Assembly (NCBI GenBank): GCA_035623825.1 | Contig: DASPSR010000062.1 | Span: forward strand, 1 to 64,000 | Reading direction: 5' to 3' | Length of the DNA stretch: 64,000 bases | DNA from: Nitrospirota bacterium | GTDB taxonomy: Bacteria; Nitrospirota; UBA9217 | Part shown: positions 8,521 to 30,451 of the stretch, piece after piece | Layout of the letters: each line of letters opens with the position of its first letter | How positions within the stretch are numbered: the first letter of the stretch is position 1 | Position numbers and translations under genes: made by a program | The notes under the pieces: generated by a model | What the model saw: only the letters and a program-made list of their open reading frames with translations | Database searches by the model: none | What the model was told of the DNA's origin: nothing

Positions 8521-8963
8521 ATTTTTGAAGAGTCGGAAGAGACTTGTAGGGTACCTTTTAGAGAACAAAAACACGCGATGGATCGCGGTATTGCTGGGGC
8601 CCGCCGGGATTCCCCCAGAAAAAGATCAGCAGGCGTCTATCAAGGTAGTCGATCCGGTGACTGTAGAATAAGCCGGAGAAGAACGGTAAGCGAAAATAGA
8701 ATAAATGGAAAACTGCCACCGCAGGAAAAGCACACAGAAAAGGCGGAAGTTTTGAACAAGAATCTTTTTATTATTTGCGAAAAACAGTAGAGCGCGGGTG
8801 GATTAATGAGCAACCCGGTCAGGACCGACGACTTGAACCGTGTCGTGAAGGTCGTGCTGCAACAGTCCGAGGAGGTGCAATTTTGAAAGACCGGGGGAAA
8901 CAAATGTCAACTCGTTTGCACTTATTGCAATTAGATAAGATTTGAACGGGGAGAACATTAAAG

Positions 8964-9083
8964 ATGACTAATCGAGAAAAAATAGGTGAAAAAATAGATG
9001 AAGCCGTGTCGTGGGTATTGATGATAACAGCATTCATCAGTTTTATGTTTTGGGAGTTATTAAAGTGGGGCCGCCAGTGGTGA
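8964..9083 (+). CDS. Small single-TM peptide (39 aa)
   Basis: ggggag RBS; MTNREKIGEKIDEAVSWVLMITAFISFMFWELLKWGRQW. Confidence 0.35.
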   Translation: MTNREKIGEKIDEAVSWVLMITAFISFMFWELLKWGRQW

Positions 9084-9547
9084 ACATACATCATACAGTC
9101 GATTATGACGCGTATGTCGGATATTTTTAAAAGAGGAAAAAACTCATATTAAGATGTCTGGCTGAGGAAATCATTAAATCAGTTACAATTCTTGTAAACA
9201 TACTTTAACGCTAATACTGTTCAGAGCATGTTAGTGTTGTTCGCTCTTGAATACATCCCGAACTCTTTCACGCGGCTTTTCATCGTGGTCTATATTACCA
9301 TTGTGAAGATGCCACCCTTCATGCCTCTCTATGGATCCCAGCAAAGATAGTTATAAAGTGCCGGTTTGCAAGGTTATTAGAGGATAGGAATCAGGTGAAT
9401 AAATAAAATCCGACTTTTTTATCCATGGCGGGACCTTGGCGGTGGAAAAGTGCACTTTATGGCATTTTAATGCAAATTATGCGTGGTTTTTTGTTAAATT
9501 AACCATAATAATCAGTACATTGCATATAAGATTTAAATGCCACAGTA

Positions 9548-10164: not shown

Positions 10165-12498
10165 ATGAATGTCCGGTTAAAAGAAATGAAAGCACAAAAG
10201 AAAGAATCTATCAGCAATCACCTGTATGAAAGCATCATGGATGGCATCACGTCCGGTGTCTGGGCAGCTGATAAAAACGACAATATCTATTATGCTAACA
10301 AAGCAATGGAGATGATCGCAGGAGTGACGCAGCAGAAGCTTCTCGGGTCGAACGTTTTTGCGACTGACGCAAAAACGGTGACAGAGTTGTTTAGGCCCCA
10401 CTATCTGGAGGCAAAGGAGTCGCTGCGGCCCGTATATTATTCAGAAGTTCCGATAGCCACGCCCGCCGGGAAACAGACTTATCAGTCAGGGTGGCTCATC
10501 CCGATAGTGACCAATGGAAAAATCGACGGCATGATTTGCACGGTCGAGGATATAACAAACGAAAAACAGACGATGAAGGCGCTGAAGGATAGTGAAACCA
10601 AGTACAAACAACTGGTAGAGAACGCCAACAGCATAATCATACGCATGGATAGAGAGGGGACCATTACTTTTATCAACCCGTTCGCGCAAAAATTGTTCGA
10701 ATACCAGGAAAGAGAAATCCTCGGCAGAAATATCGTGGGTACCATCGTACCGGACAGCGGCCGGCAAATGGTAGAGACCATGTTGAGAACAATCGAAGAA
10801 GAGCCAGGTCGGTATGCGAACATAGAATACGAAAATATCCGGTCAAACGGCGAAAAAGTTTGGATTTCATGGGCAAACAAGGCACTCTTTGATGAAGACG
10901 GCAATATAAACGAGATACTCTGTATCGGTCATGATATTACCATCCAGAAACAGCACGAACACCTCTTGCAAGAGTCGAGCCGTGAACTAGAACGACGGGT
11001 CAATCAAGGGACGGTAAAGCTGACAGCGGCGAATGAAGATCTCCAGATGGAAATACTCGAACGCAAATGGATAGAGCAGAGTCTGCGCAAATCCGAAGAG
11101 AAATACCGCCTTGTAGTCGAGTATGCAAATGAAGGCGTCTTGATCACGCAGGACAACTTCTTCCGGTTTGTTAATCCCAAGGCGGCGAAGATATTTGGCT
11201 ACACCAAGGAAGAATTAACCTCAAAGCCATTCACCGATTTCATCCATCCCGACGACCGCGAGATGGTCGTGGAACGCCACCTGAAGAGAATAAAAGGGGT
11301 CAGCATCCCTCATTTCTATTCATGCAGAATCGTGGATAGCGAAGGGAACGTCAAATGGTTGGAGGTTAACTCGGTCCTGATTACTTGGATGGGCAGACCC
11401 GCAACGCTGGCCTTCTTCAACAATATAACTGAGCGTTGGAAGGCCGAAGAGAAGCTACGCCTGACGGAATCTGCCATTCAGCAGTCAGGAGATGCTGTAG
11501 TGATAACAACGGCAAACCCGGGGCGTGCTTCGTCACGCGTCGTTTTCGTCAATGCCGCATTCACAAAGATGACGGGCTATGCGGCCGAAGAGGTGACAGA
11601 AAAGCTCTCACTCCTCCAGGGGCCGCTCTCAGACAGCACGGAGTGGAAAAAAATGGAGGCTGGCACATCGCAGAACAAGGTCTTTTATCTTGAAACAGTT
11701 GCGACCCGGAAGGACGGAACGCAGTTTAATATGGAGTGGCAGATCACGCCCTTGCGGGATGAAAGGGGGAAAGTCACACATTTCGTCTCGGTCCAGCGAG
11801 ACATCACGGAACGGAAGAAGAAGGAAGAGCAGCTGCGGCTCCTTGCATCAGAACTGCTGCTCGCAGAGGAAGGAGAGCGAAGACGTATCGCGATGGACCT
11901 TCATGATAATATCGGACAGATGCTCGCGTTGACGAGGATCAAACTGGGTGTGCTCAGAAACTCGTTATCCGGCGGTACCCCTGGTAATACCGTTGGCGAT
12001 ATTATGGATCTCATTGACCAAGCGATCGTATACACAAAATCGCTGTCTTTCGAACTGAGTCCCCCGCATTTGTATGACCTTGGTATCGAATCGACCATTG
12101 AGTGGCTGGCCGAACAGATGCAGAAGCAGCACTACATACTGTTCTACTGCGAGAAAGATAGCAGCCCCAAGCCGCTGAAGAAGGATGTTAGTATCCTGCT
12201 GTTTCAAACGGTACGGGAACTATTTATGAATATTGTGAAGCATTCTCAGGCGCATCAGGTGAATGTCAGCATCAACCGCGAAGGCGATGCAATCAAGATT
12301 GTGGTTGCAGACGACGGCATCGGTTTCGATGAGACCCAGATAGACACTAATCGGACATTCGGATTCTTCAGCATACGCGAGCGGTTAAAGTACTTTGGCG
12401 GCACGATCACGATCGATACAGGACCCGGCCGGGGCACCCGGGTGACCTTGACGTCACCGCTTGACCAAAATGAAAACAGAAAGGATGCAGGGGCGTGA
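10165..12498 (+). CDS. Soluble multi-PAS sensor histidine kinase (HisKA_3)
   Basis: Four PAS/PAC repeats; EERRRIAMDLHD-type H-box; NIVKH, DDGIGF, GTRV boxes; no TM helix. Confidence 0.92.
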   Translation: MNVRLKEMKAQKKESISNHLYESIMDGITSGVWAADKNDNIYYANKAMEMIAGVTQQKLLGSNVFATDAKTVTELFRPHYLEAKESLRPVYYSEVPIATPAGKQTYQSGWLIPIVTNGKIDGMICTVEDITNEKQTMKALKDSETKYKQLVENANSIIIRMDREGTITFINPFAQKLFEYQEREILGRNIVGTIVPDSGRQMVETMLRTIEEEPGRYANIEYENIRSNGEKVWISWANKALFDEDGNINEILCIGHDITIQKQHEHLLQESSRELERRVNQGTVKLTAANEDLQMEILERKWIEQSLRKSEEKYRLVVEYANEGVLITQDNFFRFVNPKAAKIFGYTKEELTSKPFTDFIHPDDREMVVERHLKRIKGVSIPHFYSCRIVDSEGNVKWLEVNSVLITWMGRPATLAFFNNITERWKAEEKLRLTESAIQQSGDAVVITTANPGRASSRVVFVNAAFTKMTGYAAEEVTEKLSLLQGPLSDSTEWKKMEAGTSQNKVFYLETVATRKDGTQFNMEWQITPLRDERGKVTHFVSVQRDITERKKKEEQLRLLASELLLAEEGERRRIAMDLHDNIGQMLALTRIKLGVLRNSLSGGTPGNTVGDIMDLIDQAIVYTKSLSFELSPPHLYDLGIESTIEWLAEQMQKQHYILFYCEKDSSPKPLKKDVSILLFQTVRELFMNIVKHSQAHQVNVSINREGDAIKIVVADDGIGFDETQIDTNRTFGFFSIRERLKYFGGTITIDTGPGRGTRVTLTSPLDQNENRKDAGA

Positions 12499-13142
12499 AA
12501 ATCAAAGTCCTTCTCGCCGACGATCACATTATGATGCGCGGCGGATTACGCATGGTACTTGAACAGAATACGGAGCTTTCGGTGGTCGGCGAAGCCGAGA
12601 ACGGCAGGGAAACAGTCCGTTTGGCAAAGAAACTTGAACCAGATGTGATTATTATGGATATCGCGATGTCCGACATGAACGGAATAGAAGCAACGCGCAG
12701 GATCCGTGCGGACCACCCAAACATCAAGGTGATTGCGCTCTCCATGCATTCCGACCGCCATTTTGTATCGGAAATGTTGAAGGCAGGGGCAGCAGCATAT
12801 CTCGTCAAACAGTGCGCGCTTGAGGAACTGATCGTCGCTATCAAGGCGGTGATGCAGGGTCAGACCTATCTCAGCCCCTGCATTTCTGGCGTTGTCGTGG
12901 AATATTTCGTACGAGACAAATCAAAAACGGAGGCAACTGCCTTCTCCAAGCTCACGGACCGGGAGCGGGAAGTGCTTCAGCTCATGGCAGAGGGAAAGAC
13001 CTCCAAAGAGATCGCTAGCCAGTTGAACCTCAGTGTCAAGACCATCGAGTCCCATCGCATGAATATCATGGAAAAGCTCAATATTCGTACTGTTGCCGAG
13101 CTGACGAAATATGCGATTCGCGAAGGAATTACCTCGCTCTAG
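12495..13142 (+). CDS. NarL/LuxR-family response regulator
   Basis: Receiver domain plus LTDREREVLQLMAEG...IASQLNLSVKTIESHR HTH; overlaps kinase stop. Confidence 0.95.
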   Translation: MKIKVLLADDHIMMRGGLRMVLEQNTELSVVGEAENGRETVRLAKKLEPDVIIMDIAMSDMNGIEATRRIRADHPNIKVIALSMHSDRHFVSEMLKAGAAAYLVKQCALEELIVAIKAVMQGQTYLSPCISGVVVEYFVRDKSKTEATAFSKLTDREREVLQLMAEGKTSKEIASQLNLSVKTIESHRMNIMEKLNIRTVAELTKYAIREGITSL

Positions 13143-13304: not shown

Positions 13305-13426
13305 TCACTTTAGAGTGGCAGAATGCCAATATTAATCATACAAAAAATTGAACTTTGTCAGTCATGGTCGGTCAGACAGCTGTAACTCTGAAATCCTCAC
13401 AGAATGAAAAACGGAAAGGAGATCAT

Positions 13427-14446
13427 ATGACGGAACATTTGACATCGAAGGAGCGGGTCCTCAAATTTCTGAAAGGGGAAAAGGTCGACCGCCCACCCAT
13501 TTTCAGTGGAATGGGGAATGTTGTCAAACCGGTGCTGGATAAATTGGGAATAAACTTTTCGAAGGTGCATCGTGATCCGGAACTGATGGCGAAAGCTGCA
13601 GCAGGCATGTACCGACAATTCGGTTTTGAGTGCGCGGTGGTTCCCTTTGACCTCGGTGTAGAGGCTGAGGCGCTCGGCTCGAGGATGAACTTCTATGATG
13701 AGGTGGAAGGGATTCTATATCCAACGGTAAAGGAAAAAGTTGTGACAAGTGCAGACGACCTCAAGATCCCGCACGATATCAGGAACGCCGGGCGGATCCC
13801 AGTCGTGGTTAAAGCAATCAAGGCACTCAAACGTGAGCTCGGCAACGATGTCGCAATCGGAACATATGTTCTCGGCCCATTCACCCTTGCAGGTCAGATT
13901 AAGGAACTCGATCAACTATTCGAAGAGTCCTTTCTCGAGCCGGAAAAGACCGGAAGGTTGCTGGAAAAACTCTCAAGCTTCATTGTCGAGGTCTTCAAAA
14001 TCTATCAGGAAGCAGGGGCTGACTACTTTACGCTCAGGGAGATGGGAGGGACCTCGGATGTAATGAGTCCGCGAAGTTTCAAGAGCCTGATCAAACCCCA
14101 TCTCACGAAGATTTTGGCAGCGATGCCGAGACCAAACATCCTGCATATCTGCGGCGATACGAACGCCATTATCACTGACATGGCCGAATGCGGCGCGGAT
14201 GCGGTCAGTGTGGATCACAAGAATTGCATGGCAGAGACGCGCCAGAAACTCGGTGCAAAGGCTCTCATTCTCGGAAATTTCGACCCAATCAAGGTTCTCC
14301 ATAAAGGATCAGCAGCGGAAATAGGGCCAGCGGTGCTGAATTCCCTGAAAGGCGGGGCGAGTGCGGTATGGCCAGGTTGTGATATCTGGCCTGAAGTATC
14401 TCGTGAGAATATGGAGGCCCTGGTAAAGGCTTTATCCAAAGTATAG
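13427..14446 (+). CDS. MtaA/CmuA-family (UroD fold) methylcobamide methyltransferase 1
   Basis: DLGVEAEALG, GRIPVV, GPFTLA, Zn ligands LHICG and GCD; RBS aaagga. Confidence 0.88.
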   Translation: MTEHLTSKERVLKFLKGEKVDRPPIFSGMGNVVKPVLDKLGINFSKVHRDPELMAKAAAGMYRQFGFECAVVPFDLGVEAEALGSRMNFYDEVEGILYPTVKEKVVTSADDLKIPHDIRNAGRIPVVVKAIKALKRELGNDVAIGTYVLGPFTLAGQIKELDQLFEESFLEPEKTGRLLEKLSSFIVEVFKIYQEAGADYFTLREMGGTSDVMSPRSFKSLIKPHLTKILAAMPRPNILHICGDTNAIITDMAECGADAVSVDHKNCMAETRQKLGAKALILGNFDPIKVLHKGSAAEIGPAVLNSLKGGASAVWPGCDIWPEVSRENMEALVKALSKV

Positions 14447-14462: not shown

Positions 14463-15080
14463 ATGAAGATCGTACAAATTGCGGGTTACCTTGGCTCGGG
14501 AAAGACGACACTCATTATAGCGCTCAGCAAAAAGCTTGCGGGATTGGGGATGAAGATCGCTATCCTCGTGAACGACGTAGGAGCAGTACCTGTGGATGGT
14601 ACGGTCATGCAGGAGTATGGCCTTACGGTCAAGGACATTGGAGGAGGATGCATCTGCTGTCAAGTGGCAGGAAGCCTTATGAAAACATTGGAGACTCTTG
14701 CTACAACTATAGGACCCGACCTGGTTATTATCGAGCCCACGGGCATTGCGGTCCCTGATGCGATCAGTCAGACTGTGCGTTTGATGGCGCGGAAACTTCC
14801 CGTTGAAATGGGCCACACGATTGTACTTTTCGATACATCGCGGGCGGCGAAGCTCCTCACGTACGACACACTGAAGCGTTTGGTGTCTCTTCAAATCCGT
14901 GACGCAACCATTATCGGGTTAAGTAAATCCGATCTGGTGACCGTGAAGGAGGTTGAAGAGGCATCAAAGTCTGTTCGAGAGATCAATCAGAAGGCGGAAA
15001 TCGTGCGGATCTCGACTGTCACAGGAGAAGGATTGTCCTCCCTTGTCGGTAGGATTCAAGGCGTCCATGCGATGTCATGA
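14463..15080 (+). CDS. CobW/COG0523-type G3E GTPase metallochaperone (short form)
   Basis: GYLGSGKTT, NDVG, GGGCICC, IEPTG, SKSD. Confidence 0.88.
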   Translation: MKIVQIAGYLGSGKTTLIIALSKKLAGLGMKIAILVNDVGAVPVDGTVMQEYGLTVKDIGGGCICCQVAGSLMKTLETLATTIGPDLVIIEPTGIAVPDAISQTVRLMARKLPVEMGHTIVLFDTSRAAKLLTYDTLKRLVSLQIRDATIIGLSKSDLVTVKEVEEASKSVREINQKAEIVRISTVTGEGLSSLVGRIQGVHAMS

Positions 15081-15499
15081 AAATACCAGTTATTTTCCCC
15101 GGGCAGGAAAACCCGGCCCATCAGGACATTCACAGTTACAGCGCGGAACGGTTCTTTTCTTCTGCCGGAGACCTTATGCCTGCTGAACTAAGGACCCTCG
15201 CTGGCGATACCGTCCGTGCAGTAGCGATGGGATGCGAGACTGCCGGTGCCAAGGATGTCAGCCACGTGAAGGCGTACATCGAGTATGCATCGGGGTTTCT
15301 CCATGCCGACACGGTGGGCGGAAGCGGCGGCGTTACAGTCGCGGGCCGCGATGGGAAAAAAGCAAAGCGTTTTCGATTGGTCATTAATGCTGTCATTTAC
15401 GGCCTTCCTGAAGCATCTGTCAGAATGGCCACGGAAGAGGCACTCGAAACGGTCAAGGTTCAGTACGGCCTGATCCAGGAACTGCCTTCCGGGAAATAA
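15077..15499 (+). CDS. Hypothetical protein, probable partner of the CobW-type GTPase
   Basis: Overlaps the GTPase stop; C...GAKDVSHVK motif. Confidence 0.7.
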
Positions 15500-15527: not shown

Positions 15528-16364
15528 ATGGAGACATCGGTATCAATGGCAAGGAATGCTATAGAAAAAAACATCCAGGAATTTAAAGTCACCCAGGAGC
15601 CTTTTTACCTGCCGATTCAGGACGAGGTGGAACTCTTCAAGATAGCGTATAATAATCGGCTGCCGCTGATGTTGAAAGGTCCGACGGGCTGCGGCAAGAC
15701 GCGGTTCCTTTCATACATGGCCTACAAAACGGGTCAACCGCTTATCACTATTGCCTGCCACGAGGACCTTACAGCAAGCGACTTGGTGGGTAGATACCTG
15801 CTTGATGGCGGCACGACGCGCTGGCAGGACGGCCCGCTCACGCTTGCTGTCCGCCATGGCGGAATCTGTTATCTTGATGAAATCGTCGAGGCGCGGAAGG
15901 ACACAACGGTCGTTATCCATCCTCTAACCGACGACCGGCGGATGCTGCCCTTGGAAAAACGGGGACAGATTCTCGAGGCATCGGACACATTCATGCTTGT
16001 CATATCCTACAACCCTGGCTACCAGACTGCTCTCAAGGACTTAAAGCAGAGCACTAAACAGCGCTTCGTCACCCTTGACTTCGATTATCCTCCTGCCAAT
16101 CTTGAGCAAGAGATAATCGTGCATGAGAGCGGTGTAGACCAAAAGACAGCGGCGAATCTCAGGAAAATCGCCGAAAAAATCCGGGGTCTGAAAGACCGCG
16201 GCCTCGACGAAGGGGTGAGCACACGATTATTGATCTATGCGGGCATGCTGGTGACCCAGGGTGTTGAACCGAGGCGCGCCTGCGAGGTTGCAATGATCAA
16301 GCCCATCACCGATGACCTGGAAATGCAGAAGACATTGAAGGAGATCGTTTCTGCGGTCCTATGA
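15528..16364 (+). CDS. CbbQ/NirQ/NorQ-family MoxR AAA+ ATPase
   Basis: EPFY N-terminus, [47 protein letters not shown]. Confidence 0.95.
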
Positions 16365-19066
16365 TCAATCACGACTCACAACAGAAACTAATTGAGAATC
16401 TCTCTGTGTCCATAGCGGAGAGGCTTGGCCTGAACGGGAAGGCTGGCGTGACCCTCGGCGGACTGAATTCTCTGCTTGACGGCGAGACGCATCTTCGCTT
16501 CCTCGCCATGCTGGAATCATTCCTGTCCATTGACAAATCACTCTCGCAATCGCTCCTCACAAATGCTGTAACAACGTTGTCCACCGTAGAAGGGCAGCAG
16601 GCAAGGGCGGCATTCATCTCATTTGCGGCTGCCATGGGCCGCTCCAAATGGAGCGTTGTGGAAGCGCTTTTTCGCACCCTGCCCGGGCTCAAAGGACGGC
16701 CTGACTCGGTCATCATCGATTGGGCCGCATCTGCAAGCAAGCTGGCTGAGAGAGATCAAGATGTTGCCCTCGCGTATTTGAACGCCAGCATCCCGCTGCT
16801 GACGGACCTGCATGACGAAGCATTCGTACGATGGGCGGAGCGCGGCGTGGAGATTACCGCAAAATCGTGGAAGGCCGGCCGTGAATATTTCCGCTCCAGC
16901 GTCGACGTGGTCAAGAAGATCGATGTCTGCGACCTCGACCGTTGGGCTCAGCTAGGCCTCATGCTCATCGAAAAGGCGCCGAGCATCAGAGCCTCCTATT
17001 CACCCCACAGCATGCTTGCTGCAGGTGCTTCTGCCGGCAAGGCGAAAAAAGCGGATCTTGCATTACAGTACTTCCGTTCTGCTCCGCAGATCCTCGGCAG
17101 GCTTACTGTGCAGGACTTGGAGGAGTGGGTTGCGAGGGGGCTGCAAAACGTGGAGGAGCAGGCGGACAAGGGGCAATCCTTTTTTTCACTCCAGACCGGG
17201 TCAAGTCGCACGACCATCAAAAGCCTTATCAAGGGACTGGAGCTCAACGATATCCACACTGTGCTGCGCGATTATGCTGAAGCCCTTGTCGGCGTGAAGC
17301 TCATGCTTCGCTCATCATCGCTCTTTTACAAGAACCTTCCCGGCCTGAGCCAGTTCTTCTCGGTTACTGACGGGATGCGCATCTTCCTGCCCAGCAGGAT
17401 TGAAACGTTCAGCGTTGAAGACATGAACTTTAAGACCTACAAGTGGTGCTTGACCCATGAGATGGCTCACCTCCTCCACGGCACCTTCGAATTGACGCCG
17501 GCTCTGGTTCGTGCCCAACTCGGCACGCTTCCCAATTCTCGTCAGGCATTTCGGATTTTCGAGTTTCTTGAGGATGAGCGCGTTGACCACTTGATGATGA
17601 ACGACTATCCCGGTCTGAAAAAGGACCGCGACCTTATCATGAGTGCGTTTCTATCAAAGAAGCTGGAAACAGGTGTGACCGAGGTCCCCGTGCTGGAACA
17701 ATTGGGTCTACGGGAGATTCTTCCCGTTCCTGCTTCGAGCAGTTCCTCTGTCCTCGCAAACCTTCTTGGACAAGCCCTGGGCAAAGTGCTTAAGCCGGAA
17801 ACGACGGCCCGTGATGTTCTTGCTCTTACGGTCGAACTTGCGCGTTCGCTGGACGAGAACGCCTTCTGCGGGATATCTGACGGCCGGGACGCCGGTAACC
17901 GTCTTTTCTACCGGGGTGTGATTGACTATGACCTTGTAGAGAATGCAAGATCAGGAATGCAGCGGCTCGTGGTCGACCTTGTGGATCGATTTGCGGACCG
18001 GAAGGAGACCGTTGATCCACGACTTGTGGAGACGGCGCTTAACCGAATCGAAGAGGGAGCCATCGTCGACTCGGACGAACTGCTCTGGCAGGTACAGGAT
18101 CCTGACAGGCTCACAGAACTGTATGAGCAGGTCAAAGGCGAGATGGAAGAGATGGAGGCGGAAAAACGATTTCGCCGAAGCGCGTACTATGATGAATGGG
18201 ACGCGAAGATGGACGATTATCGGAAGGATTGGGTCCGCGTACGGGAAATGGACACCCCGGAGAGCTCGACCCAGTTCTACGACCGCGTTGTGGCGGAGCA
18301 ATACGGCCTGGTGAGTACTCTGCGGCGGTACTTCGGGTTGTTACGACCTGACCGGATTCAGCGATTCTTTCGTGAGGAACGAGGGGACGAAATCGACTTC
18401 GACGCCATGATCGAAGCCGTCGTAGAGCGGCACGCCGGCGTCACCCCGTCTGATCGCGTTTATATCAGGCGGGAGAAGAACCTTCGCGACGTGTCTGTTG
18501 CCTTTCTCGCGGACATGAGCTATTCAACGGGCGATGAGCTCCCGTCTGGAAAGAGAATCATTGATGTCGAACGGGAGGGGCTTGTACTGATGGCCGAAGC
18601 CCTGGAAAGCATCGGCGATCGGTGGGCTGTGTACGGTTTCTCCTCGAACTATCGCGACAAGGTCGATTTTTATGTGGTGCGTGATTTTGACGAGACATCA
18701 TTCACACGGTTCCGGCAGAGGTTTGACTTCATCAAACCTATGGCGCAGACGCGGCTCGGCGCAGCTATTCGCCACGCGGCAAGTTTGCTCGGCCGGCAGG
18801 GGTCGCGCATCAGGCTCCTGATCCTCCTATCCGATGGCAGGCCCTATGATGTTGACTACGGAGATGCAGACTACGCGGTGGAGGATACGCGTCGCGCGCT
18901 GTGGGAGATCAGGAAAAAAGGCATCTTCTCATTCTGTATTACCGTGGACAAGAAGAGCCGGGAGTACCTCCCTTACATGTATGGGGAGACTAATTATACG
19001 CTTATCGATAACGTGGAAACGCTACCCCAGCGTCTGCCGCTGATTTATAAAAGATTGACAACGTGA
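16361..19066 (+). CDS. CbbO/NorD-like VWA-domain protein
   Basis: N-terminal helical repeats, [37 protein letters not shown]. Confidence 0.92.
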
Positions 19067-19231
19067 TGATCATGCGTCAATCGTTTTGGAAAACTCGACT
19101 AAACCAGGGCTAAACAAAACTTGTGAGAAGATGCAAATCGGGGGAAAACCTCTCGTTCGGCGTAACGAATGAGGCGGTGCAATCCACGTTTAAACAGTCT
19201 ACCGGCAAAGCCGGTGAAAGGAGGTAAAAAT

Positions 19232-19465
19232 ATGGAATCCTGTTACAAATGCGGTAGAGCGGCTGATTTCATATGTCCTGATTGTGGGACCAAAGCATGC
19301 AAGAGCCACATGGAGCTTCGCTACACCGGTCCGGACCGGGGCTTCAAGTCGCGGTTCATGTGCCCGTCATGCTGGAAGAGCAAACGGGTCAAACTGAACC
19401 AGGATATGGTACGTGCCGATGCGTATAGACCCAAGACATATGTTGCTTTCGGCAGAAGGGAATAG
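19232..19465 (+). CDS. Small zinc-finger protein
   Basis: CxxC-x7-CxxC-x4-CxxH...CxxC; strong RBS aaggagg. Confidence 0.8.
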   Translation: MESCYKCGRAADFICPDCGTKACKSHMELRYTGPDRGFKSRFMCPSCWKSKRVKLNQDMVRADAYRPKTYVAFGRRE

Positions 19466-19467
19466 CG

Positions 19468-20160
19468 ATGACGGCGGTAAGAAAGGCGGTTCACAGGTCA
19501 TCTGTGGAGCATCACGGAGAACAGGGCAGGCTGGCATCCCTCGTTGAGTTTGCACTGGCTAAGGGTGCCTACCGTGCAAAGGCGTTTTCCGCCCGGAAAG
19601 TCGTGATTGACGAACGGGTTCGGCTTAAATGCCAGATTCCCTTATGTCCCCATTATAACACTACACTGACCTGTCCGCCCAACGTACCAACCGTAGACGA
19701 GTTCAGAAGGGCGCTTCAATTGTACAAAAAAGCAGTGCTGGTTCAGACCAGAGCGCCGCTCAGTCTCTCCATGGATGATTTTGACAAGAAGGAAGTGCTC
19801 ACGTTCCTGGATTCCCATGGCACAGCTCCTGTTCCAAACGCGGCCGTAGAGAGCGAAGCCCGCAGGAACCTCGAGGACGTAAAACTCCAGTCAGTCAGGC
19901 TTCACAAGCTGGTAAACGAGGTGGAGTCGGAGGCATTGTCACTGGGTTTTCATTACGCTCTGGGGCTTATTGGCGGTGACTGTATGCTGTGCCCGAAATG
20001 CGCGGGTCCAGGCGCGTCCTGCCGGCGGCCTTTTCAGGCTCGTCCGTCCATGGAGGGTATCGGTATCGATGTGGTCAGAACAAGCAGGAACGCGGGGCTG
20101 TCGTTCGATATCCCGCCCAAGCATGAGGTCGTATGGACTGGGCTCGTTCTTGTGGAGTAG
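19468..20160 (+). CDS. DUF2284 metal-binding protein
   Basis: RVRLKC...CPHY...CPP, GDCMLCPKC...C, ARPSMEGIGIDV. Confidence 0.88.
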   Translation: MTAVRKAVHRSSVEHHGEQGRLASLVEFALAKGAYRAKAFSARKVVIDERVRLKCQIPLCPHYNTTLTCPPNVPTVDEFRRALQLYKKAVLVQTRAPLSLSMDDFDKKEVLTFLDSHGTAPVPNAAVESEARRNLEDVKLQSVRLHKLVNEVESEALSLGFHYALGLIGGDCMLCPKCAGPGASCRRPFQARPSMEGIGIDVVRTSRNAGLSFDIPPKHEVVWTGLVLVE

Positions 20161-20214
20161 TTTCGGCCGACGAACTGCGGCCGATGGTGTCAATTCAAAT
20201 AGGAGGTGGTTTCA

Positions 20215-21276
20215 ATGGCGGATCAGATGACAAGTCTGGAAAGAGTTGCAACAGCCATGCAGTTTAAAGAGGCGGACCGGGTACCCGCCGCACCGCTCGT
20301 ATGCGGCGCGAGCCATCGGTTCTCGGGGCTGACCTATGCGGACTGGTCGCGAGGCACTGACATAGACGCAATGGTCAAAGGACATGTAGATGCCCTCGAT
20401 ATGATCGGGCATGACGGTGTCGTTCTGCTGATCGACCTTTCCGTCGAGGCGCATGCGTTCGGATGCGAGATCAACTTCCCGGAAATGGGGACTGCGCATC
20501 CCAACTATGACAAACCATTTATCGGCAGCCATAAGGAGTACACGAAGGTCAAGCGTATCGATCCCCGCAAGACGCTGCGCACCAAGTCGGTTATTGAGCT
20601 TGCGGCGGGGCTTTCCAAGGAGATTGGCAAGACTCACGCCATCGTCGGCTTTGTCTACGGTTCTATCGGCGTCCTCAGCATGCTGCGCGGACCCGAAGCA
20701 TTTTTTATGGATCTCATGGAGCATCCCAATGAGGTCATGGCAGCTGTCGAAGTGGTAGACGAGGTTCTGATGGATTACACCAAGGCGCAACTTGAAGCAG
20801 GTGTGCATGCCATCTGCTACGATCACCTGTATGGGTCGCAAAGCATCTTGAGCAAACCGTTGTGGGAAAAATTCGAGGGGCAGTCCGTGAAGAAGATTGC
20901 AGATTACGTGCATAAGGCGGGAGCACTCTTTGGATTCCACAACTGCGGCAATGGCATCTACTTCGATATGAGCATGAAATACGGAAAGCCGCATTTCATT
21001 TCTCATGCTTATGTGGCCGACGATGTGGATAGCTGGGAAGAGAACAAGAAAAAATGGGGTAAATCCACGACAACAATTGGCTGGATCCCTCCCGGGCCGG
21101 TGGCAATGCTTGGCACGCCCGAAGAAATCGAGGAGGAGTGCAAGGCCGAGATCGAGATTTATGCAAAAGGCGGTGGGTTTATCCTTGCGACCGGCTGCGA
21201 GTACGGCCCCAATGCTCCGCTCAGGAATGCGAAGCGGATCGTCGAAGCGGCGAAAAAATACGGTGTTTATAAATAA
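20215..21276 (+). CDS. UroD/MtaA-family methylcobamide methyltransferase 2
   Basis: DRVPAAP, DLSVEAHAFG, Zn ligands FHNCG and TGCE, GTPEEI, GGFILATG. Confidence 0.88.
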   Translation: MADQMTSLERVATAMQFKEADRVPAAPLVCGASHRFSGLTYADWSRGTDIDAMVKGHVDALDMIGHDGVVLLIDLSVEAHAFGCEINFPEMGTAHPNYDKPFIGSHKEYTKVKRIDPRKTLRTKSVIELAAGLSKEIGKTHAIVGFVYGSIGVLSMLRGPEAFFMDLMEHPNEVMAAVEVVDEVLMDYTKAQLEAGVHAICYDHLYGSQSILSKPLWEKFEGQSVKKIADYVHKAGALFGFHNCGNGIYFDMSMKYGKPHFISHAYVADDVDSWEENKKKWGKSTTTIGWIPPGPVAMLGTPEEIEEECKAEIEIYAKGGGFILATGCEYGPNAPLRNAKRIVEAAKKYGVYK

Positions 21277-21328: not shown

Positions 21329-22000
21329 ATGGTAACCAAGGAAAAGGAACAGGAACTAATCAAGAGACTTCAAGATGCGGTAATCAACTACCGGGTTGAT
21401 GACGCCAGAAAGACAGCTGAAGAAGCGATCAAGGCAGGTGCTGATGCGTACACGATGACCATGTCCGGATTGGCAGGCGGGATGGAGGTCGTGAGCCAGA
21501 AGTTCGACAGCCATGAATACTTCGTCCCCGAGACATTGCTGTGTGCCAAAGCGCTCTATGCAGCCCTGGATTTGCTGAAGCCGCATATTAAGGCACGGGA
21601 CGAAGGCGCGCGCGGTCAAGTAGTGCTGGGTGTGATGCAAGGTGACGTGCACGACCTCGGGAAAAATCTCATCAAGGCCATTTTCGAATCAGCTGGGTGG
21701 ACCGTGCACGATCTGGGAAGAGATGTTCCGCTCCAGAAGTTCGTGGACGAACAGCTCAAAACCGACTCCGACATCGTTATGCTTTCCGCGATGATGACGA
21801 CTTCGATGGTGGGGATCAAGAAGCTCATTCCGATGATAAAAGAGAAGAACCCGAAGGTAAAGATCATGATCGGAGGAGCGCCAATCACCGAGAAGACCGT
21901 CGAGGAATACGGCGCTGACGTAACGGCTGATAATGCTCCCAATGCCTTGCGCGAAGCAATGAGGATGCTCGAAGCTCTGCGAAAAGGCAGGGCAGCTTAG
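21329..22000 (+). CDS. Corrinoid (B12-binding) methyl-carrier protein, MtaC/MtbC-like
   Basis: Four-helix cap (YFVPE) plus GDVHDLGKN (DxHxxG), SAMMTT, MIGGAP. Confidence 0.93.
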   Translation: MVTKEKEQELIKRLQDAVINYRVDDARKTAEEAIKAGADAYTMTMSGLAGGMEVVSQKFDSHEYFVPETLLCAKALYAALDLLKPHIKARDEGARGQVVLGVMQGDVHDLGKNLIKAIFESAGWTVHDLGRDVPLQKFVDEQLKTDSDIVMLSAMMTTSMVGIKKLIPMIKEKNPKVKIMIGGAPITEKTVEEYGADVTADNAPNALREAMRMLEALRKGRAA

Positions 22001-22111: not shown

Positions 22112-24055
22112 ATGGAACATACGATCATCTTTCAGCCGTCAGGCCGTCGTGGCCGGGTACCTGAAGGCACCACGATCCTTGATGCTGCCAGAAGGCTAGG
22201 AGTAGGAATTGAGGCGGTCTGCGGTGAGAAGCTTGTCTGTGGAAAGTGCCGGATCAAGATCATGGAGGGACTGTTTCCGAAGGAGGGGATCACGTCCTCT
22301 ATGAAGCACCTGAGCGATCTCGACGAGAAGGAGATCAAGGTGCTTAAGCGGAAGGATTCTGACGAACATATCCGGCTGGCTTGCTCTACGCGCATACACG
22401 GTGATGTGCTGGTATTCGTCCCGGAGGCCAGCCGCACAGGAAAACAAGTCGTCAGCAAGGCGGCCGGCGTCATAAAGGTGAAACTTAAACCGGCCGTCAA
22501 GAAGTACTATGTCGAACTTCCCCCTCCCAAGCTGGACGATCCACTCGGAGATTTAGAGCGGCTTGAAAAGGCTCTTGCTAAACACCATCGATTCAAGCCG
22601 CTCGCTATCGATTACCGGGTTCTTCAAAGCCTTCCCGACGCAGTCCGCAAAGGGGACTGGAAGGTGACCGTTACCATCTGGAACAAAAGCGAGATCATCC
22701 GGATCGAACCGGGCAAGGTGACAACCAACATCGGCCTCGCGGTTGACATCGGAACTACAACGGTTGCCGGATATCTAACCGACCTTAACACAGGCAAGGT
22801 CCTGGTGACCGAATCAATGATGAATCCTCAGGTGCGGTACGGTGAGGACGTTATGTCGCGCATAACCTACTGCATGATGAACGAGCAGACCGGCCTCAAG
22901 GAGTTGCAGGCAACGATTATCGAGGGTTTGAACTCGATAGCGAAGCAGGCGGCCCATAAAGCCGGATTCTCACCCGATGATATCAGCGAGATGACCCTGG
23001 TCGGTAATACTGCCATGCACCACATCCTGCTCGGGATCAATCCGGAGTACATGGGAGTCGCTCCCTTTACACCCGCCCTTCATCGTTCAGTGGATCTCAA
23101 GGCTGAGCGATTCGGAATTGAGATTCTTCCCAGCGGTAACATTCATATCATGCCAATCGAAGCCGGTTTTGTGGGGGCCGACAACGTCGGATGTCTGATT
23201 GCCGATACACCGCACAGGAAGGAAGCCATGACGCTCCTAATCGATATCGGCACGAACGGCGAACTCGTGTTGGGGAATCGCAAGAAGCTCATTTCCTGCT
23301 CGTGCGCTACAGGTCCAGCGCTCGAAGGGGCACAGATCGAATTTGGCATGCGCGCAGCACCTGGAGCAATCGAGCGGGTCAAGATTGATCCGCAGACCTA
23401 CGAACCCACCTACAAGGTGATCGGCAACAACGAGTGGAGCGATGGAGTGAGAAACATGCAAGCCCGGGGCATCTGCGGTTCTGCCATCATCGACGTTATA
23501 GCCGAGATGTTCAAGGCAGGGATTATCATGAAGAACGGTCGGCTCAACGCAGAGATCAAGTCATCCCGCATCAGACAGGGAGCAAAGAATGTGGTCGAGT
23601 ACGTCCTCGCCTGGAAGCACGAGACGGCGATCGACCAAGACGTTGTCGTCAACCAGAAGGACGTTCGGGCCATACAGCTCGCTAAGGGAGCCCTCTATTC
23701 CGGCTGCCTGATCATGATGCGGAAGCTCGGCGTCGACTCGTTCGACCGACTTGCGGTTGCAGGCGCCTTTGGAAGCCACATCGACAAGGTTGCAGCGATG
23801 GCAATCGGGATGTACCCGGACTGTGATTTAAAGAAAGTCGAGTATATCGGCAACGCTGCTGGGGATGGAGCACGGATTGCGCTCTTGAACACTGATAAGC
23901 GAAGGGAAGCAAATCAGATAGCTCGACAGGTGGAATATGTGGAGTTGGCTCTCGAGGAGGATTTTAACGACCGCTTTGGAGAGGCTATGCAGTTTCCTCA
24001 CATGTTCGATAAGTTTCCTCACCTGAAAGGCATTTTGTCCGAGGAGTATGTTTAA
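22112..24055 (+). CDS. ATP-dependent reductive activator of corrinoid enzymes (RACE/RACo; [2Fe-2S]-ASKHA, DUF4445)
   Basis: CGEKLVCGKC...RLAC ferredoxin; DIGTT, DIGTNGE, GPALEG, GICGS, GNAAG. Confidence 0.93.
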   Translation: MEHTIIFQPSGRRGRVPEGTTILDAARRLGVGIEAVCGEKLVCGKCRIKIMEGLFPKEGITSSMKHLSDLDEKEIKVLKRKDSDEHIRLACSTRIHGDVLVFVPEASRTGKQVVSKAAGVIKVKLKPAVKKYYVELPPPKLDDPLGDLERLEKALAKHHRFKPLAIDYRVLQSLPDAVRKGDWKVTVTIWNKSEIIRIEPGKVTTNIGLAVDIGTTTVAGYLTDLNTGKVLVTESMMNPQVRYGEDVMSRITYCMMNEQTGLKELQATIIEGLNSIAKQAAHKAGFSPDDISEMTLVGNTAMHHILLGINPEYMGVAPFTPALHRSVDLKAERFGIEILPSGNIHIMPIEAGFVGADNVGCLIADTPHRKEAMTLLIDIGTNGELVLGNRKKLISCSCATGPALEGAQIEFGMRAAPGAIERVKIDPQTYEPTYKVIGNNEWSDGVRNMQARGICGSAIIDVIAEMFKAGIIMKNGRLNAEIKSSRIRQGAKNVVEYVLAWKHETAIDQDVVVNQKDVRAIQLAKGALYSGCLIMMRKLGVDSFDRLAVAGAFGSHIDKVAAMAIGMYPDCDLKKVEYIGNAAGDGARIALLNTDKRREANQIARQVEYVELALEEDFNDRFGEAMQFPHMFDKFPHLKGILSEEYV

Positions 24056-24106: not shown

Positions 24107-24295
24107 ATGAAGGTGAAATATATAGGCGACACAAAGAATGTGCAGACAATAAGCGGAAAACAGGTCTCAATTGCGAGGAACGCTCAGTACGAATGCATGG
24201 AAAAGGAATATCATTCAGCAACGACCGTTCGGGTGTTGCTTCCCGATGGCGAACACGTCAAGATCAAACGTTCGGAACTCCAGAAAGTGGCATAA
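24107..24295 (+). CDS. Small beta-rich hypothetical protein (62 aa)
   Basis: RBS aaagga; same strand and operon spacing. Confidence 0.6.
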   Translation: MKVKYIGDTKNVQTISGKQVSIARNAQYECMEKEYHSATTVRVLLPDGEHVKIKRSELQKVA

Positions 24296-24305
24296 GGGGT
24301 GTTTT

Positions 24306-24506
24306 GTGAGAATCTCCATCGAATACTGCGGTACATGCAACTATCGGCCACAAGCCGCTGCCCTTGCGAATGCCATCGAAGAAGCTGTCGGGGTTAAGCC
24401 AAGATTGGTGCATTCTACCGTAATCGGCACGTAAAAGGTTTTCGTGGATGGAGATACCATTTTCCCCAAACCGAGAGGGGCATTGAGTGTGCTGAGCAAA
24501 AGATAG
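24306..24506 (+). pseudogene. Rdx (SelT/SelW/SelH-like) redox protein, CxxC form, interrupted by TAA
   Basis: RISIEYCGTCNYRPQAAALA...GT*KVFVDGDTIF; family-like sequence continues in frame after TAA at 24432. Confidence 0.75.
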
Positions 24507-24844: not shown

Positions 24845-24900
24845 CCAGTGTGAAAGCGACATTCAAAAACGTTAAACCGTTAGAATGGGGAACCGACAAG

Positions 24901-25956
24901 ATGGAGAACATGAAGAACAAAGTTGTGGCTGTTAAAGACTCACTGGCCGGCGAGGCCCAGAGGCACTTGGATAATCTCACCAAGCCACCAGGCAGTCTGG
25001 GCAGACTTGAGGAATTTGCGAAAAGGATCGTAGCAATCACCGGCGAACGGATGCCCGTCCTTGACAAAAAAGTCATCTTCACGTTCGCGGGAGACCACGG
25101 AATCACCGAAGAAGGCGTGTCCGCCTATCCGAAAGAGGTAACTCCGCAAATGGTCTTCAACTTCCTCCGCGGTGGAGCAGGCATCAACGTGCTGGCACGC
25201 CAGGCGGGCGCGGATGTGGTTGTCATCGACATCGGCGTTGATTATGACTTTGCAAATGCTGCAAGCCTTGTATCGCGAAAAGTCGTGCATGGGACCGCGA
25301 ACATGGCGAAAGGCCCGGCCATGACGAGGCAGCAGGCGGAGCAGTGCATACAGGTGGGAATCGATCTTGCCAGAGAGTACGCAAATAAGGGATACCGCAT
25401 TTTCGGCACTGGAGACATGGGCATCGGCAATACGACGCCGTCCAGCGCCATCGCGTCGGTGCTCACGAAAACGCCGGTCGCGGATGTGACCGGCAGGGGC
25501 ACGGGGATAAGCGAACAGTCGCTTCGAAATAAGATAACGGTGATCGAGAAAAGCATCGCCCTGAACCGGCCCGATCCTAAGGACCCTATCGACGTCTTGG
25601 CAAAGGTGGGAGGGGCAGAAATCGGCGGCATTGCCGGACTGATCCTGGGGGCATCCTCCGAACGAGTCCCAGTGGTAGTGGATGGTCTTATTTCGACTGC
25701 GGGCGCAATGATCGCCTACGAGATCGAGCCGAAGACTGCGGACTATATGTTTGCCGGTCATTCCTCGGTCGAGATTGGCCAGAAGGCCATGTTGCGAAGA
25801 ATGGGCCTTGCGCCGATCCTCGATCTTAATTTAAGGCTCGGCGAAGGTACAGGAGCCGCGCTCGCCATGATGATGATCGAGGCTGGCACCAGGATCTACA
25901 GGGAAATGGCAACCTTCGGCGAGGCCGGAGTTTCGGATGAAATAATCAACCAATGA
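24901..25956 (+). CDS. cobT: Nicotinate-nucleotide:benzimidazole phosphoribosyltransferase
   Basis: [38 protein letters not shown]; start may be 24850 or 24910. Confidence 0.95.
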
Positions 25957-26028
25957 CACCTGAGCGGATGAAGCGCCAACAGTTCATCAAATTTGGTCGT
26001 TTTCGTCGAATCGGTACTCGATAATGTT

Positions 26029-27576
26029 ATGAAGCAATTCCTGCCTCATCAGCGCTATGATGCGCAGACTGCCGGTCCGCAGTATCTCGAAGACCTTGCC
26101 ACGGGATATTGGTATTCGGAGGTGCTCTTTACGGCTGTTGAAATGGACCTCTTTTCCTGCCTCGGAGAAGAAGGCGCGACCGTGGAGGAACTCGCCGGCA
26201 AACTTGAAGCAACTTTCGAGGGCGTGAGACGGCTTATCCGGACACTCGTCCACCTGGGGCTTGTAACCGAGGGTGATGGAAAGTGTTTCAATACAAAACT
26301 TTCGAGCACCTATCTGCTGAAGGGGAGGGACCAGTATCAAGGGCATTCCATTCTCTGGCGCAGGCATTTGCGTCCTGGCTGGCAGGCTCTCACGGCATGC
26401 ATCAGAAAAGGCGGAAGGGTGGAGTACCCCGACGACAAACCTTCCGAACGAGTCGAACGCATACGCAAATATATCCTCGCCATGGACGCTGTCGCAAAAG
26501 CAAAGACAGACGAAATTGTTCGTTTTTTCGAGGGGCGTTCTCAAAAGGGCGAAATACTCGATGTGGGGACAGGATCTGGCGCTATTGCAGCCGCCTTTCT
26601 TGAACGTTTTCCCGAAACGAGGGCGACGGTCATGGATCTAGCGGATGTGCTCGAGCAGAGCCGTGAGCTGATGTCCCGAAGTGGCCTTGAAAGGAGAATT
26701 CAGTACTGCCCGGCGAACATCCTCTTGTCCTGGCCGCTCGAGGAACGAGATTTCGAGATCATCATCCTTTCGAACATTCTTCACGCCTATTCCGAGCGCG
26801 AGCTGGATCATATTCTTCGCTCTGCAGCGAATCGTCTGGGGAAGAACGGCATTCTTCTCGTCCATGATTTTTTCTTCGAGCACTGTCCGCAAAAGGCCTC
26901 GCTCTCCGATCTGAACATGTTCATCAACACCTTTAACGGCAGGGTTTTTCAAGCAGCCAACGCCCGTGAACAGCTTTCCCGTCTCGGGCTTCTGTGCTCA
27001 GAGCTCGTGCCGCTTACGAGCGATACTGCCGTTTTCTTCGCATCAAAGGAGAAAGCCGCACTCAATAGCCTTTGTCTTAGACCCGAAGACATATTGGTTT
27101 CCCGCATGCGGGCTTTGGGTTTTGAGGAAGTGTATCCGATAAAGTCAGAAGACATTCATATCTCGGAATGGACAAGCCTCAAGTGCCGCTTCGGGTGCGG
27201 CCACTATGGCAGCCTCCGTTGTCCTCCGAACAGCCCGTCAGCCGGAAAGACCAGAAAGATAGTCAAGGACTACAGGCGTGCGCTCCTCCTCCAGGGAGAA
27301 CCGCCGACACGGGACTTTCAGCTCAGAGTGCTGAAAGCCGAGATCGAGGCACTCAAGAGCGGTTTTCATAAGGCTCTTTCCTTTTGGGCCGGCCCGTGTT
27401 CACTGTGTGAATCCTGCAACACGGAGAAATGCAGAAACACGGCGTGGGCGAGGCCTTCCATGGAAGGTGCGGGCATCGACGTGTACGAAACCGTACGGAG
27501 CGCTGGTGCATCTCTCAGAACCTTGAACAGTAAAGATGAGTTCGTGAAATACTTCGCGTTAATCCTTCTGGAGTGA
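26029..27576 (+). CDS. bzaC: SAM O-methyltransferase fused to C-terminal DUF2284 (BzaC-like)
   Basis: Dimerisation domain plus LDVGTGSG, SNILH; C-terminal KCRFGC..CPP..GPCSLC..ARPSMEG; follows cobT. Confidence 0.8.
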   Translation: MKQFLPHQRYDAQTAGPQYLEDLATGYWYSEVLFTAVEMDLFSCLGEEGATVEELAGKLEATFEGVRRLIRTLVHLGLVTEGDGKCFNTKLSSTYLLKGRDQYQGHSILWRRHLRPGWQALTACIRKGGRVEYPDDKPSERVERIRKYILAMDAVAKAKTDEIVRFFEGRSQKGEILDVGTGSGAIAAAFLERFPETRATVMDLADVLEQSRELMSRSGLERRIQYCPANILLSWPLEERDFEIIILSNILHAYSERELDHILRSAANRLGKNGILLVHDFFFEHCPQKASLSDLNMFINTFNGRVFQAANAREQLSRLGLLCSELVPLTSDTAVFFASKEKAALNSLCLRPEDILVSRMRALGFEEVYPIKSEDIHISEWTSLKCRFGCGHYGSLRCPPNSPSAGKTRKIVKDYRRALLLQGEPPTRDFQLRVLKAEIEALKSGFHKALSFWAGPCSLCESCNTEKCRNTAWARPSMEGAGIDVYETVRSAGASLRTLNSKDEFVKYFALILLE

Positions 27577-27580
27577 AGTT

Positions 27581-30435: not shown

Positions 30436-30451
30436 GATACGGCTTTATCGA

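Follow-up and report, generated by a model that had tools for sequence, protein, structure and literature searches.

A CbbQ/NorQ-type ATPase and its VWA partner in a corrinoid methyl-transfer cassette: a candidate new client for the chaperone family

MoxR-family AAA+ ATPases paired with VWA-domain proteins are very common, and few of their clients are known. Besides Rubisco and the nitric oxide reductase cNOR, these include the chelatases for cobalt and magnesium and a small number of others. The question raised by the locus described here is what such a pair does when it is encoded between the genes of a methyltransferase system. The locus lies in a stretch of 64,000 nucleotides (positions 1 to 64,000, forward strand, of contig DASPSR010000062.1 in assembly GCA_035623825.1 of a Nitrospirota bacterium), hereafter the window; the pair, a CbbQ-type ATPase (P0001) and a VWA protein (P0002), occupies positions 15,528 to 19,066. 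The first-pass annotation had proposed a methyltransferase or the neighbouring corrinoid protein as the client. The comparisons described below point to an undescribed client for the CbbQ/NorQ chaperone family. We propose that P0001 and P0002 form a CbbQO/NorQD-type MoxR–VWA remodelling machine that serves a corrinoid methyl-transfer operon, its most likely client being the methyltransferase here called MT_B; judged from sequence comparison, the proposal as a whole has about an even chance of being right. Its parts differ in strength. That the pair serves the cassette is very probable; that the client is MT_B could go either way; and that the act performed is metal insertion is put forward tentatively.

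The two genes of the pair are as follows.

15528-16364, + strand: CbbQ/NorQ-type MoxR AAA+ ATPase (P0001), 278 residues, AAA_5 and CbbQ_C domains
16361-19066, + strand: NorD/CbbO-type VWA adaptor (P0002), 901 residues, VWA domain at residues 713-878

P0001 is a member of the CbbQ/NorQ subfamily of MoxR AAA+ ATPases. Both of its Pfam matches are above the cut-offs (AAA_5, E 4.5e-35; CbbQ_C, E 2.5e-32), and its nearest solved structures are CbbQ (5c3c, E 1.7e-114) and NorQ (9qh4, E 1.6e-100), CbbQ 6l1q and NorQ 9qhd also being matched. It is the only protein with a CbbQ_C match in the whole genome, an assembly of 3.24 Mb in 67 contigs that is 89.65% complete. The Walker A (GPTGCGKT) and Walker B (ICYLDE) motifs are both intact in the translation, and the ATG of the VWA gene (16361-16363) overlaps the TGA of the ATPase gene (16362-16364) in an ATGA junction, as the first-pass annotation had stated on both counts. 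P0002 is the NorD/CbbO-type VWA partner protein. Its Pfam VWA match, at residues 713-878, scores 27 bits against a cut-off of 23.8. The MIDAS (metal ion-dependent adhesion site) that had been read from the sequence is present (DMSYS at 718-722, T797 and D825), and D718, S720, S722, T797 and D825 are invariant in a 16-sequence alignment of the family. A family profile run against solved structures matched only NorD (9qhd_G; profile positions 586-889, E 2.5e-60); the C-terminal 300 or so residues align to NorD 343-643, including the MIDAS and a C-terminal motif that is also found in the NorD and CbbO references. This motif is the contact with NorQ in the published NorQD structure (PMC13036017).

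None of the 41 open reading frames (ORFs) of the window that were scanned against Pfam encodes Rubisco, a heme-copper oxidase or a glycyl-radical enzyme, short ORFs lying outside the scan. The earlier statement that the window has no cbbL/M, norCB or glycyl-radical gene is borne out to that extent, the genome beyond the window not having been searched for glycyl-radical enzymes. What does surround the pair is the following.

13355-14446, + strand: MT_A, MtaA-like URO-D methyltransferase (MT2-like), URO-D E 1.6e-70
14463-15080, + strand: short CobW/G3E-type GTPase with a GCICC metal motif, Pfam cobW E 2.6e-33
15077-15499, + strand: o140, a small protein, its gene overlapping the CobW gene by 4 bases
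19169-19465, + strand: o98, a small Cys-rich, zinc-ribbon-like protein with sub-threshold Pfam matches only
19468-20160, + strand: DUF2284 protein, PF10050 E 3.6e-43, seven conserved cysteines
20206-21276, + strand: MT_B, a divergent URO-D methyltransferase, URO-D E 6.9e-51
21329-22000, + strand: corrinoid protein, B12-binding and B12-binding_2 domains
22112-24055, + strand: RACo-type reductive activator of corrinoid proteins, Fer2, RACo_linker, Raco_middle and RACo_C_ter domains

The cluster is a corrinoid methyltransferase system: alongside the two methyltransferases it encodes a B12-binding protein and an activase of the RACo type. The CbbQ–VWA pair is flanked by the two genes that Pfam assigns to URO-D (13355-14446 and 20206-21276), just where the first-pass annotation had placed it. 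The genes are closely packed, with two 4-base overlaps (CobW/o140 and CbbQ/VWA) and other gaps of 2-111 bases. MT_A reaches 254 bits with NCBIfam PRK06252 (cut-off 244), carries an HxC...C motif in its translation and has MtaA (4ay7, E 4e-48) as its best solved relative; the TTG at 13355 probably lies upstream of its true start, given that the Pfam match sets in at residue 30 and that the alignment with related loci also starts only near this point. The family profile of MT_B also aligns with MtaA 4ay7 and keeps the HxC and C columns. In both proteins these columns align with LHICG and PGCG of MtaA, the ligand residues of which we take to be zinc-binding. The corrinoid protein scores 188 bits with TIGR02370, below the cut-off of 215.3, and the short CobW protein scores 115.7 bits with CobW_rel_Se, below the cut-off of 180. 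For o140 there was no Pfam or NCBIfam match, and an Atlas search gave unnamed clusters only; the sub-threshold matches of o98 are to zinc-ribbon and B-box families.

The arrangement is not chance: it recurs in all 31 of the related genome loci. A protein search with P0002 returned 115 proteins, of which 113 are 44-100% identical to it, the full-length or nearly full-length ones among them having about 900 residues, and two match the C-terminal third only. When one genome per species was scanned, the pattern matched 126 times; 32 of these matches were confirmed and represent 31 distinct loci, from Nitrospirota/Thermodesulfovibrionales, Nitrospinota, Desulfobacterota and one metagenome-assembled genome labelled Rokuibacteriota. 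The P0002 relatives in these loci, which we call type A, are 48-85% identical to it and all lie inside the same methyltransferase cassette, with the order MT_A-CobW-o140-CbbQ-VWA-o98-DUF2284-MT_B-corrinoid protein-RACo kept as far as the contigs reach. When the window proteins were mapped onto the loci, and only contigs reaching the expected place were counted, every component was found wherever it could be: MT_A in 26/26, CobW and o140 each in 27/27, CbbQ in 27/27, o98 in 30/30, DUF2284 in 29/29, MT_B and the corrinoid protein each in 25/25 and RACo in 22/22. No Rubisco gene adjoins the pair in any of the 31. The closest homologs thus sit not beside Rubisco or nor genes, the outcome that would have spoken against a new client, but in the methyltransferase cassette throughout. 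One locus (L033), several genes of which look broken up, was not taken as a natural knockout. The distribution of the cassette is patchy across at least three phyla: its N-domain was found in 5 genomes out of 301 sampled from the phylum of the window, the source genome (G000) included, and in none of three genomes of the same genus (77-99% complete). With the linkage kept across so patchy a distribution, the cassette moves and persists as a unit.

A second arrangement, type B, was reached through MT_B. Among the homologs of this protein, those at least 61% identical to it make up the cassette group, and the next group stands near 50%; the sister clade is 47-50% identical to MT_B. A member of the second group (P0189) had matches in 9 of 201 Desulfobacterota genomes searched. 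The order in type B is CobW-o140-CobW(Sec)-URO-D-CbbQ-VWA-DUF2284, where Sec stands for selenocysteine. It is seen, for example, in L052 (G172:C53:36500-56499), which encodes a CobW protein, an o140-like protein, a second CobW protein with an in-frame stop, a URO-D protein, a CbbQ 66% identical to P0001, a VWA protein of 768 residues and a DUF2284 protein. In its vicinity are genes for a full-length CobW, a MIP channel, a thioredoxin, a CooS-type CO dehydrogenase and a PAS-LuxR regulator, as well as the N-terminal part of an ArsM-type selenoprotein, which scores 348 bits over positions 1-202 of the model. Further type B loci came from a metagenome scan with the sister-group alignment, which gave 453 pattern matches and 301 confirmed loci, of which the best 80 were kept. 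Downstream of the URO-D gene, CbbQ is present in 45 of the 47 contigs with at least 1.3 kb there, VWA in 34/37 and DUF2284 in 23/26; upstream, CobW is found just before it in 58/63 and o140 in 45/46. Two loci (L171 and L178) have no CbbQ though the contig leaves room enough. Anywhere among the best 80 of the 301, a corrinoid protein gene was found in 8, MT_A in 1 and RACo in none, and an ArsM-like gene in 3 and a MIP gene in 1; no o98 homolog was detected in these 80 loci. The neighbourhood mapping that had been suggested for the pair adds a second group of pairs beside a URO-D gene; the Rubisco- and nor-linked reference pairs are more distant by identity from P0001 and P0002.

The second CobW gene of type B has a stop at GG*xGC in 33/33 parsed loci (of L108-L187), the copy in L052 lying at 8871-9461, and in all 36 occurrences of the motif among the 80 loci and L052 the stop codon is TGA. 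From its sequence this protein fits the NCBIfam family 'CobW-related selenoprotein', which would place that family in the cassette.

Common to types A and B, then, are CobW, o140, a URO-D methyltransferase of the MT_B type, CbbQ, VWA and DUF2284. The likeness extends to individual residues, with GGGCICC kept in CobW, G57, A58, H63 and K65 in o140, and the cysteines C55, C60, C69, C172, C175, C178 and C185 in DUF2284. The spacing of the last, CX4CX8C and CX2CX2CX6C in both cassette types, suggests iron-sulfur or other metal binding. By hhalign, the N-domain of the type A VWA proteins is homologous to that of type B (probability 99.5%, E 2.8e-22, 355 columns). Seven other URO-D loci, 39-42% identical to MT_B, have a corrinoid protein adjoining in 6/7; CbbQ, VWA and CobW are found in none of the seven, up to 10 kb on each side having been covered in the four long ones. 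Among the residues kept in the chaperone-linked URO-D clades and replaced in these seven chaperone-less relatives are R38, H201, W284 and T329.

It is this comparison that leads us to MT_B as the most likely client and to the loading of a metal site as the act, because the URO-D methyltransferase is the only enzyme in the core common to A and B; the other members of the shared core belong to chaperone-type or metal-binding families, or are without known function. That the strict gene linkage in two cassette types means a client relation is our reading of it. The choice that the first-pass annotation left between a methyltransferase and the corrinoid protein is supported by the comparison and appears to narrow to an MT_B-type enzyme, away from the corrinoid protein and MT_A. 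Among the acts it had listed, metal loading is favoured over cobamide exchange, because CobW-type GTPases are common to both cassettes.

The published models for NorQD and CbbQO offer a template for how the pair might work (PMC13036017, PMC9976466, PMC4660213), NorQD being itself described as a metal-insertion system (PMC13036017). A single VWA adaptor would put a finger into the CbbQ hexamer, its C-terminal motif touching the ring, while the family-specific N-domain and the MIDAS would grip the client in two places. The ring, by hydrolysing ATP, would twist the linker and open the client, apo-MT_B, the MtaA-type His/Cys/Cys site of which would then be filled with metal from the adjacent CobW-type G3E GTPase. 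The o140 protein and the Cys-rich DUF2284 protein may be further helpers.

Several points weigh against this proposal. The evidence for a relation between the pair and MT_B is comparative genomics; the type B loci were retrieved with a URO-D query, and the presence of URO-D in them is therefore by construction. The pairs of A and B are not joined in trees of either the VWA C-terminus or CbbQ (see below), which would be explained by a URO-D link that arose on two occasions or by trees that fall short of the resolution needed. We know of no chaperone requirement for MtaA-type zinc sites. An invariant HExxH motif in the type A adaptor has no role in the metal-loading model. Lastly, among more distant pairs, 6 of 20 loci have RACo beside the pair and no methyltransferase nearby, which would fit a corrinoid protein as the client.

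These six belong to a set found by searching with a type B VWA protein, which matched in 89 of 401 Desulfobacterota genomes, in the C-terminal part only; 20 of the loci were examined. In six of them (L090, L092, L093, L095, L097 and L098) a RACo gene (48-54% identical to that of the window) and a Lin0512-family gene are divergent from a CbbQ gene and a gene for a 900-residue VWA protein, in what looks like a four-gene unit with unrelated flanks. Among the other distant pairs, some adjoin adenylate cyclase-AAA_16-TPR genes, some SNF2 helicases, and for some no partner is obvious. In two (L094 and L096) the CbbQ–VWA genes stand beside a protein of 1140-1170 residues with zinc-ribbon, adenylate cyclase, AAA_16 and TPR regions and a small ORF of no family. 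In the parts of the 20 loci scanned, no Rubisco or nor gene was seen beside the pair; CbbQ-type pairs with no textbook client next to them are therefore common, and the feature that distinguishes this one is how strictly and repeatedly it is linked to corrinoid methyl-transfer genes.

The divergent RACo genes are one reason to ask whether the pair instead serves the corrinoid protein, loading or exchanging its cobamide or rescuing it from a dead-end state, alongside RACo. The completeness of type A, in which the corrinoid protein and RACo are never missing, speaks for this, as do the eight type B loci that have a corrinoid protein gene and the operon that directly follows the cassette in the window:

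24850-32123: anaerobic benzimidazole lower-ligand (bza) operon, directly downstream of the cassette

This operon, which looks complete, encodes CobT, a fusion of an O-methyltransferase with DUF2284, and BzaD, which scores 649 bits, along with a second B12-binding radical SAM protein and one resembling ThiC; bza genes also follow the cassette in L010, L011, L017, L025 and L033. The corrinoid protein is, however, missing from 72 of the 80 type B loci and RACo from all 80, many of these contigs being short, and CobW GTPases with Cys or Sec metal motifs in both cassettes suit a metal ion better than a cobamide. We consider a corrinoid client unlikely, though by no means far-fetched. As for RACo itself, it is present besides the pair in type A, and the pair is therefore no substitute for it.

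The relation of the pair to its better-known relatives was assessed with references taken from annotated plasmids, namely one cbbL-cbbS-CbbQ-VWA locus (L189) and three cytochrome c-norB-like-CbbQ-type-VWA loci (L190-L192). Identities to P0001 and to the C-terminus of P0002, respectively, are as follows.

Type A: 72-85% and 66-80%
Type B: 57-66% and 38-46%
RACo-linked pairs: 61-62% and 41-43%
Rubisco-linked reference: 61% and 36%
nor-linked references: 54-57% and 32-37%

Maximum-likelihood trees of the VWA C-terminus and of CbbQ were built from 49 rows, including the window, 12 of the 31 A loci and 14 of 81 B loci. In both, A, B and the nor-linked pairs each form one clade with full support (100/100 for the nor-linked clade). 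Type A joins RACo-linked and other pairs weakly in the VWA tree (85/77); in the CbbQ tree it joins the single Rubisco-linked reference, which is one long branch (94/86). A single origin of A and B is not claimed, since neither tree joins them.

The grouping with a Rubisco-linked CbbQ bears on another possibility, that the pair is an activase in the Rubisco sense, opening an inhibited or mis-ligated methyltransferase (or its complex with the corrinoid protein) and freeing product or inhibitor, with no metal insertion. CbbQO has the same two-gene unit, an AAA_5 plus CbbQ_C protein followed by a VWA/MIDAS protein, and where the type A adaptor has HExxH ... LEDER the Rubisco-linked CbbO has HAAAH ... 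FEDAR, so that an HxxxH ... (L/F)EDxR pair is common to the two N-domains. The Rubisco activase consists of a CbbQ hexamer and CbbO and acts via the MIDAS on a surface carboxylate (PMC4660213). The grouping hangs on one long-branch reference, however, and is not strongly supported, and an activase of this kind leaves the conserved CobW GTPases, DUF2284 and o140 unexplained. An activase in this sense seems to us rather improbable. As a system, CbbQO differs from the pair in several ways: no Rubisco gene adjoins the type A loci, P0002 is some 150 residues longer than the reference CbbO, and the Glu of HExxH, intact in P0002, is absent from that protein.

The metal-loading proposal has a parallel in NorQD, the chaperone that inserts Fe(B) into cNOR and a model for ATP-driven metal insertion (PMC13036017, PMC9976466). 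The pair differs from it in lying outside the nor-linked clade, in having no norCB beside it in the window, and in the HxxxH and LEDxR motifs, neither of which occurs in the three NorD references. A further parallel, in a B12-related setting, is the cobaltochelatase CobNST, where a G3E GTPase, CobW, feeds metal insertion driven by an AAA+/VWA motor. The pairing of a CobW-type GTPase with such a motor is the same; the proposed target here is a protein metal site as opposed to a tetrapyrrole, and the cassette has no CobN-like gene. A CobST-like chelatase was rejected on the weak match of P0001 to CobS (E 4.9e-05; 19.7 bits against a cut-off of 558), the genome not having been searched for CobN. 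RACo/RamA proteins resemble the pair in being ATP-dependent helpers encoded with corrinoid methyltransferase systems, and differ in belonging to an unrelated family (ASKHA plus 2Fe-2S).

P0002 itself can be divided as follows.

16361-17233, + strand: N-terminal alpha-helical solenoid, residues 1-291 (predicted structure)
17216-17860, + strand: zincin-like module, residues 286-500, with HExxH at 366-370 (17456-17470) and an EFLEDERVD helix at 401-409
18116-19066, + strand: end of the linker and VWA domain, residues 586-901, with MIDAS DMSYS at 18512-18526

A model of residues 1-590 has a mean predicted local distance difference test score (pLDDT) of 84.3 and consists of an alpha-solenoid (1-291), short strands, a helix (353-372) bearing HExxH and a long helix with EFLEDERVD. 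The only matches to the whole N-domain model are designed or natural helical repeats (Z 7-12). When residues 286-500 were modelled separately (pLDDT 84.2; predicted template modelling score 0.83), the VIA-wide list of fold matches was rich in zincins, all at Z 5-6.7: 3cmn, ZMPSTE24, BlaR1, the minigluzincins jannalysin, selecase and abylysin, Ste24, BepA, HtpX, Wss1 and SprT-like proteins. For neither N-domain model did Foldseek find a PDB entry at E <= 0.001, and Pfam gave no match, peptidase families included, on residues 1-590. The HExxH motif is kept in all 27 full-length type A orthologs, a count made without L018, L025 and L034 (truncated) and L033 (fragmented); H366, E367, H370, E404, D405, E406 and R407 are invariant in the family, E404-E406 being on the next long helix after HExxH.

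It is possible to read this as an active metallopeptidase, the zincin-like module cutting a cassette protein during maturation, and proteolytic finishing of other metalloenzymes offers a parallel. The invariance of HExxH, followed by a helix with invariant acidic residues, and the predominance of zincins among the fold matches agree with such a role. Set against them are the modest Z scores, the lack of a significant Foldseek match and of any peptidase match in Pfam, and the state of the motif elsewhere: the type B VWA proteins have H-Q-x-x-L in its place and the Rubisco-linked CbbO lacks the Glu. With the motif degenerate in type B and CbbO, proteolysis cannot be the function that they share. 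We think a peptidase distinctly improbable; the HExxH site may only bind metal. A profile of the module found 802 representative proteins at E <= 0.001, of which 224 also pass E <= 1e-10. Among 149 top hits, 28 have HExxH and the second motif, 52 have HxxxH and the second motif, 120 have the second motif and 101 have DxSxS in their last 350 residues. From these sequences the module has the look of an ancient component of CbbO-like adaptors that type A has kept whole and that has decayed in other groups. In PMC4660213 the N-domain of CbbO is said to show no discernible homology. On an actinobacterial plasmid (NZ_CP064358.1; L188) a CbbQ 65% identical to P0001, a hypothetical protein of 362 residues and a VWA protein of 548 residues are encoded by three separate genes adjoining thiolase and AMP-binding genes; the trio looks like a split form of the VWA adaptor.

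There remains the idea that the position of the pair in the cassette is incidental and that its client is encoded elsewhere in the genome. Candidates do exist. Contig C67 encodes a Rubisco-like protein, and contig C40 a COX1-like ORF of 463 residues that follows, with a 4-base overlap, the gene for a 242-residue cytochrome c (L005, G000:C40:86606-90871). The COX1-like ORF has no NCBIfam model at 1e-10 and lies about 4 kb from cbb3 oxidase genes; possibly it is a divergent NOR-like enzyme. Subunit I of an aa3-type oxidase and of a cbb3-type oxidase are also encoded on other contigs. None of these genes is near the CbbQ–VWA pair. The Rubisco-like protein is below all NCBIfam cut-offs, those for carboxylases included; the model that it matches best, that of the MtnW-type enolase, gives 224.9 bits where 409 is the cut-off. 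The sole CbbQ_C gene of the genome is embedded in an operon-like block with 4-base overlaps, and its counterparts are embedded likewise in 31/31 loci from different phyla. A client elsewhere is thus very improbable indeed. Rubisco or NOR as the client was rejected, there being no adjacency in any of the loci.

Upstream of MT_A lie two genes that are probable regulators of the cassette.

10165-12498, + strand: PAS histidine kinase, Pfam PAS, HisKA_3 and HATPase_c
12495-13142, + strand: LuxR-type response regulator, Pfam Response_reg and GerE

A homologous kinase-regulator pair is directly upstream of the cassette in 15 of the 31 related loci. A promoter and terminator scan gave signals not above those of shuffled sequence. 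Between the RACo gene and the bza operon, a small ORF (24171-24434) matches only the first 28 of the 70 positions of the SelT/SelW/SelH (seleno)protein model, and for this reason the gene may read through a TGA; homologous pieces are found near the cassette in many related loci.

To our knowledge, a reductive activase is the only helper that corrinoid methyltransferase systems are known to need. RACo/RamA-type proteins are likewise the only 'activase' ascribed to them so far (PMC8630106). A full-text literature search, which did not extend to subscription journals or supplements, found no paper that links CbbQ/NorQ-type pairs to corrinoid methyltransferases, RACo or DUF2284. The strict link of the pair, together with CobW-type GTPases, to one URO-D clade offers a concrete and testable new client, and suggests that some of the B12-dependent methyl-transfer enzymes of anaerobes need maturation driven by ATP and GTP. 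Three orphan families (DUF2284, o140 and the 'CobW-related selenoprotein') gain a context, and the N-domain of a CbbO-like adaptor is seen to hold a zincin-like module, as a predicted fold. A more speculative step, which we regard as improbable, would place the pair in an assembly line devoted to building an unusual active site, found in one distinct clade of URO-D-type corrinoid methyltransferases. Working with the pair would be a CobW-type GTPase, or two of them where the sister cassette adds a selenoprotein, together with o140 and the DUF2284 protein with its seven cysteines. The enzymes might then have a metal centre unable to self-assemble, or handle metal(loid) or chalcogen substrates; hints of the latter are the ArsM-type selenoprotein gene in four type B loci (L052 and 3/80) and the MIP channel in two (L052 and 1/80). 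If such an assembly line exists, it would mean a new corrinoid-dependent methyl-transfer chemistry with a maturation pathway of its own.

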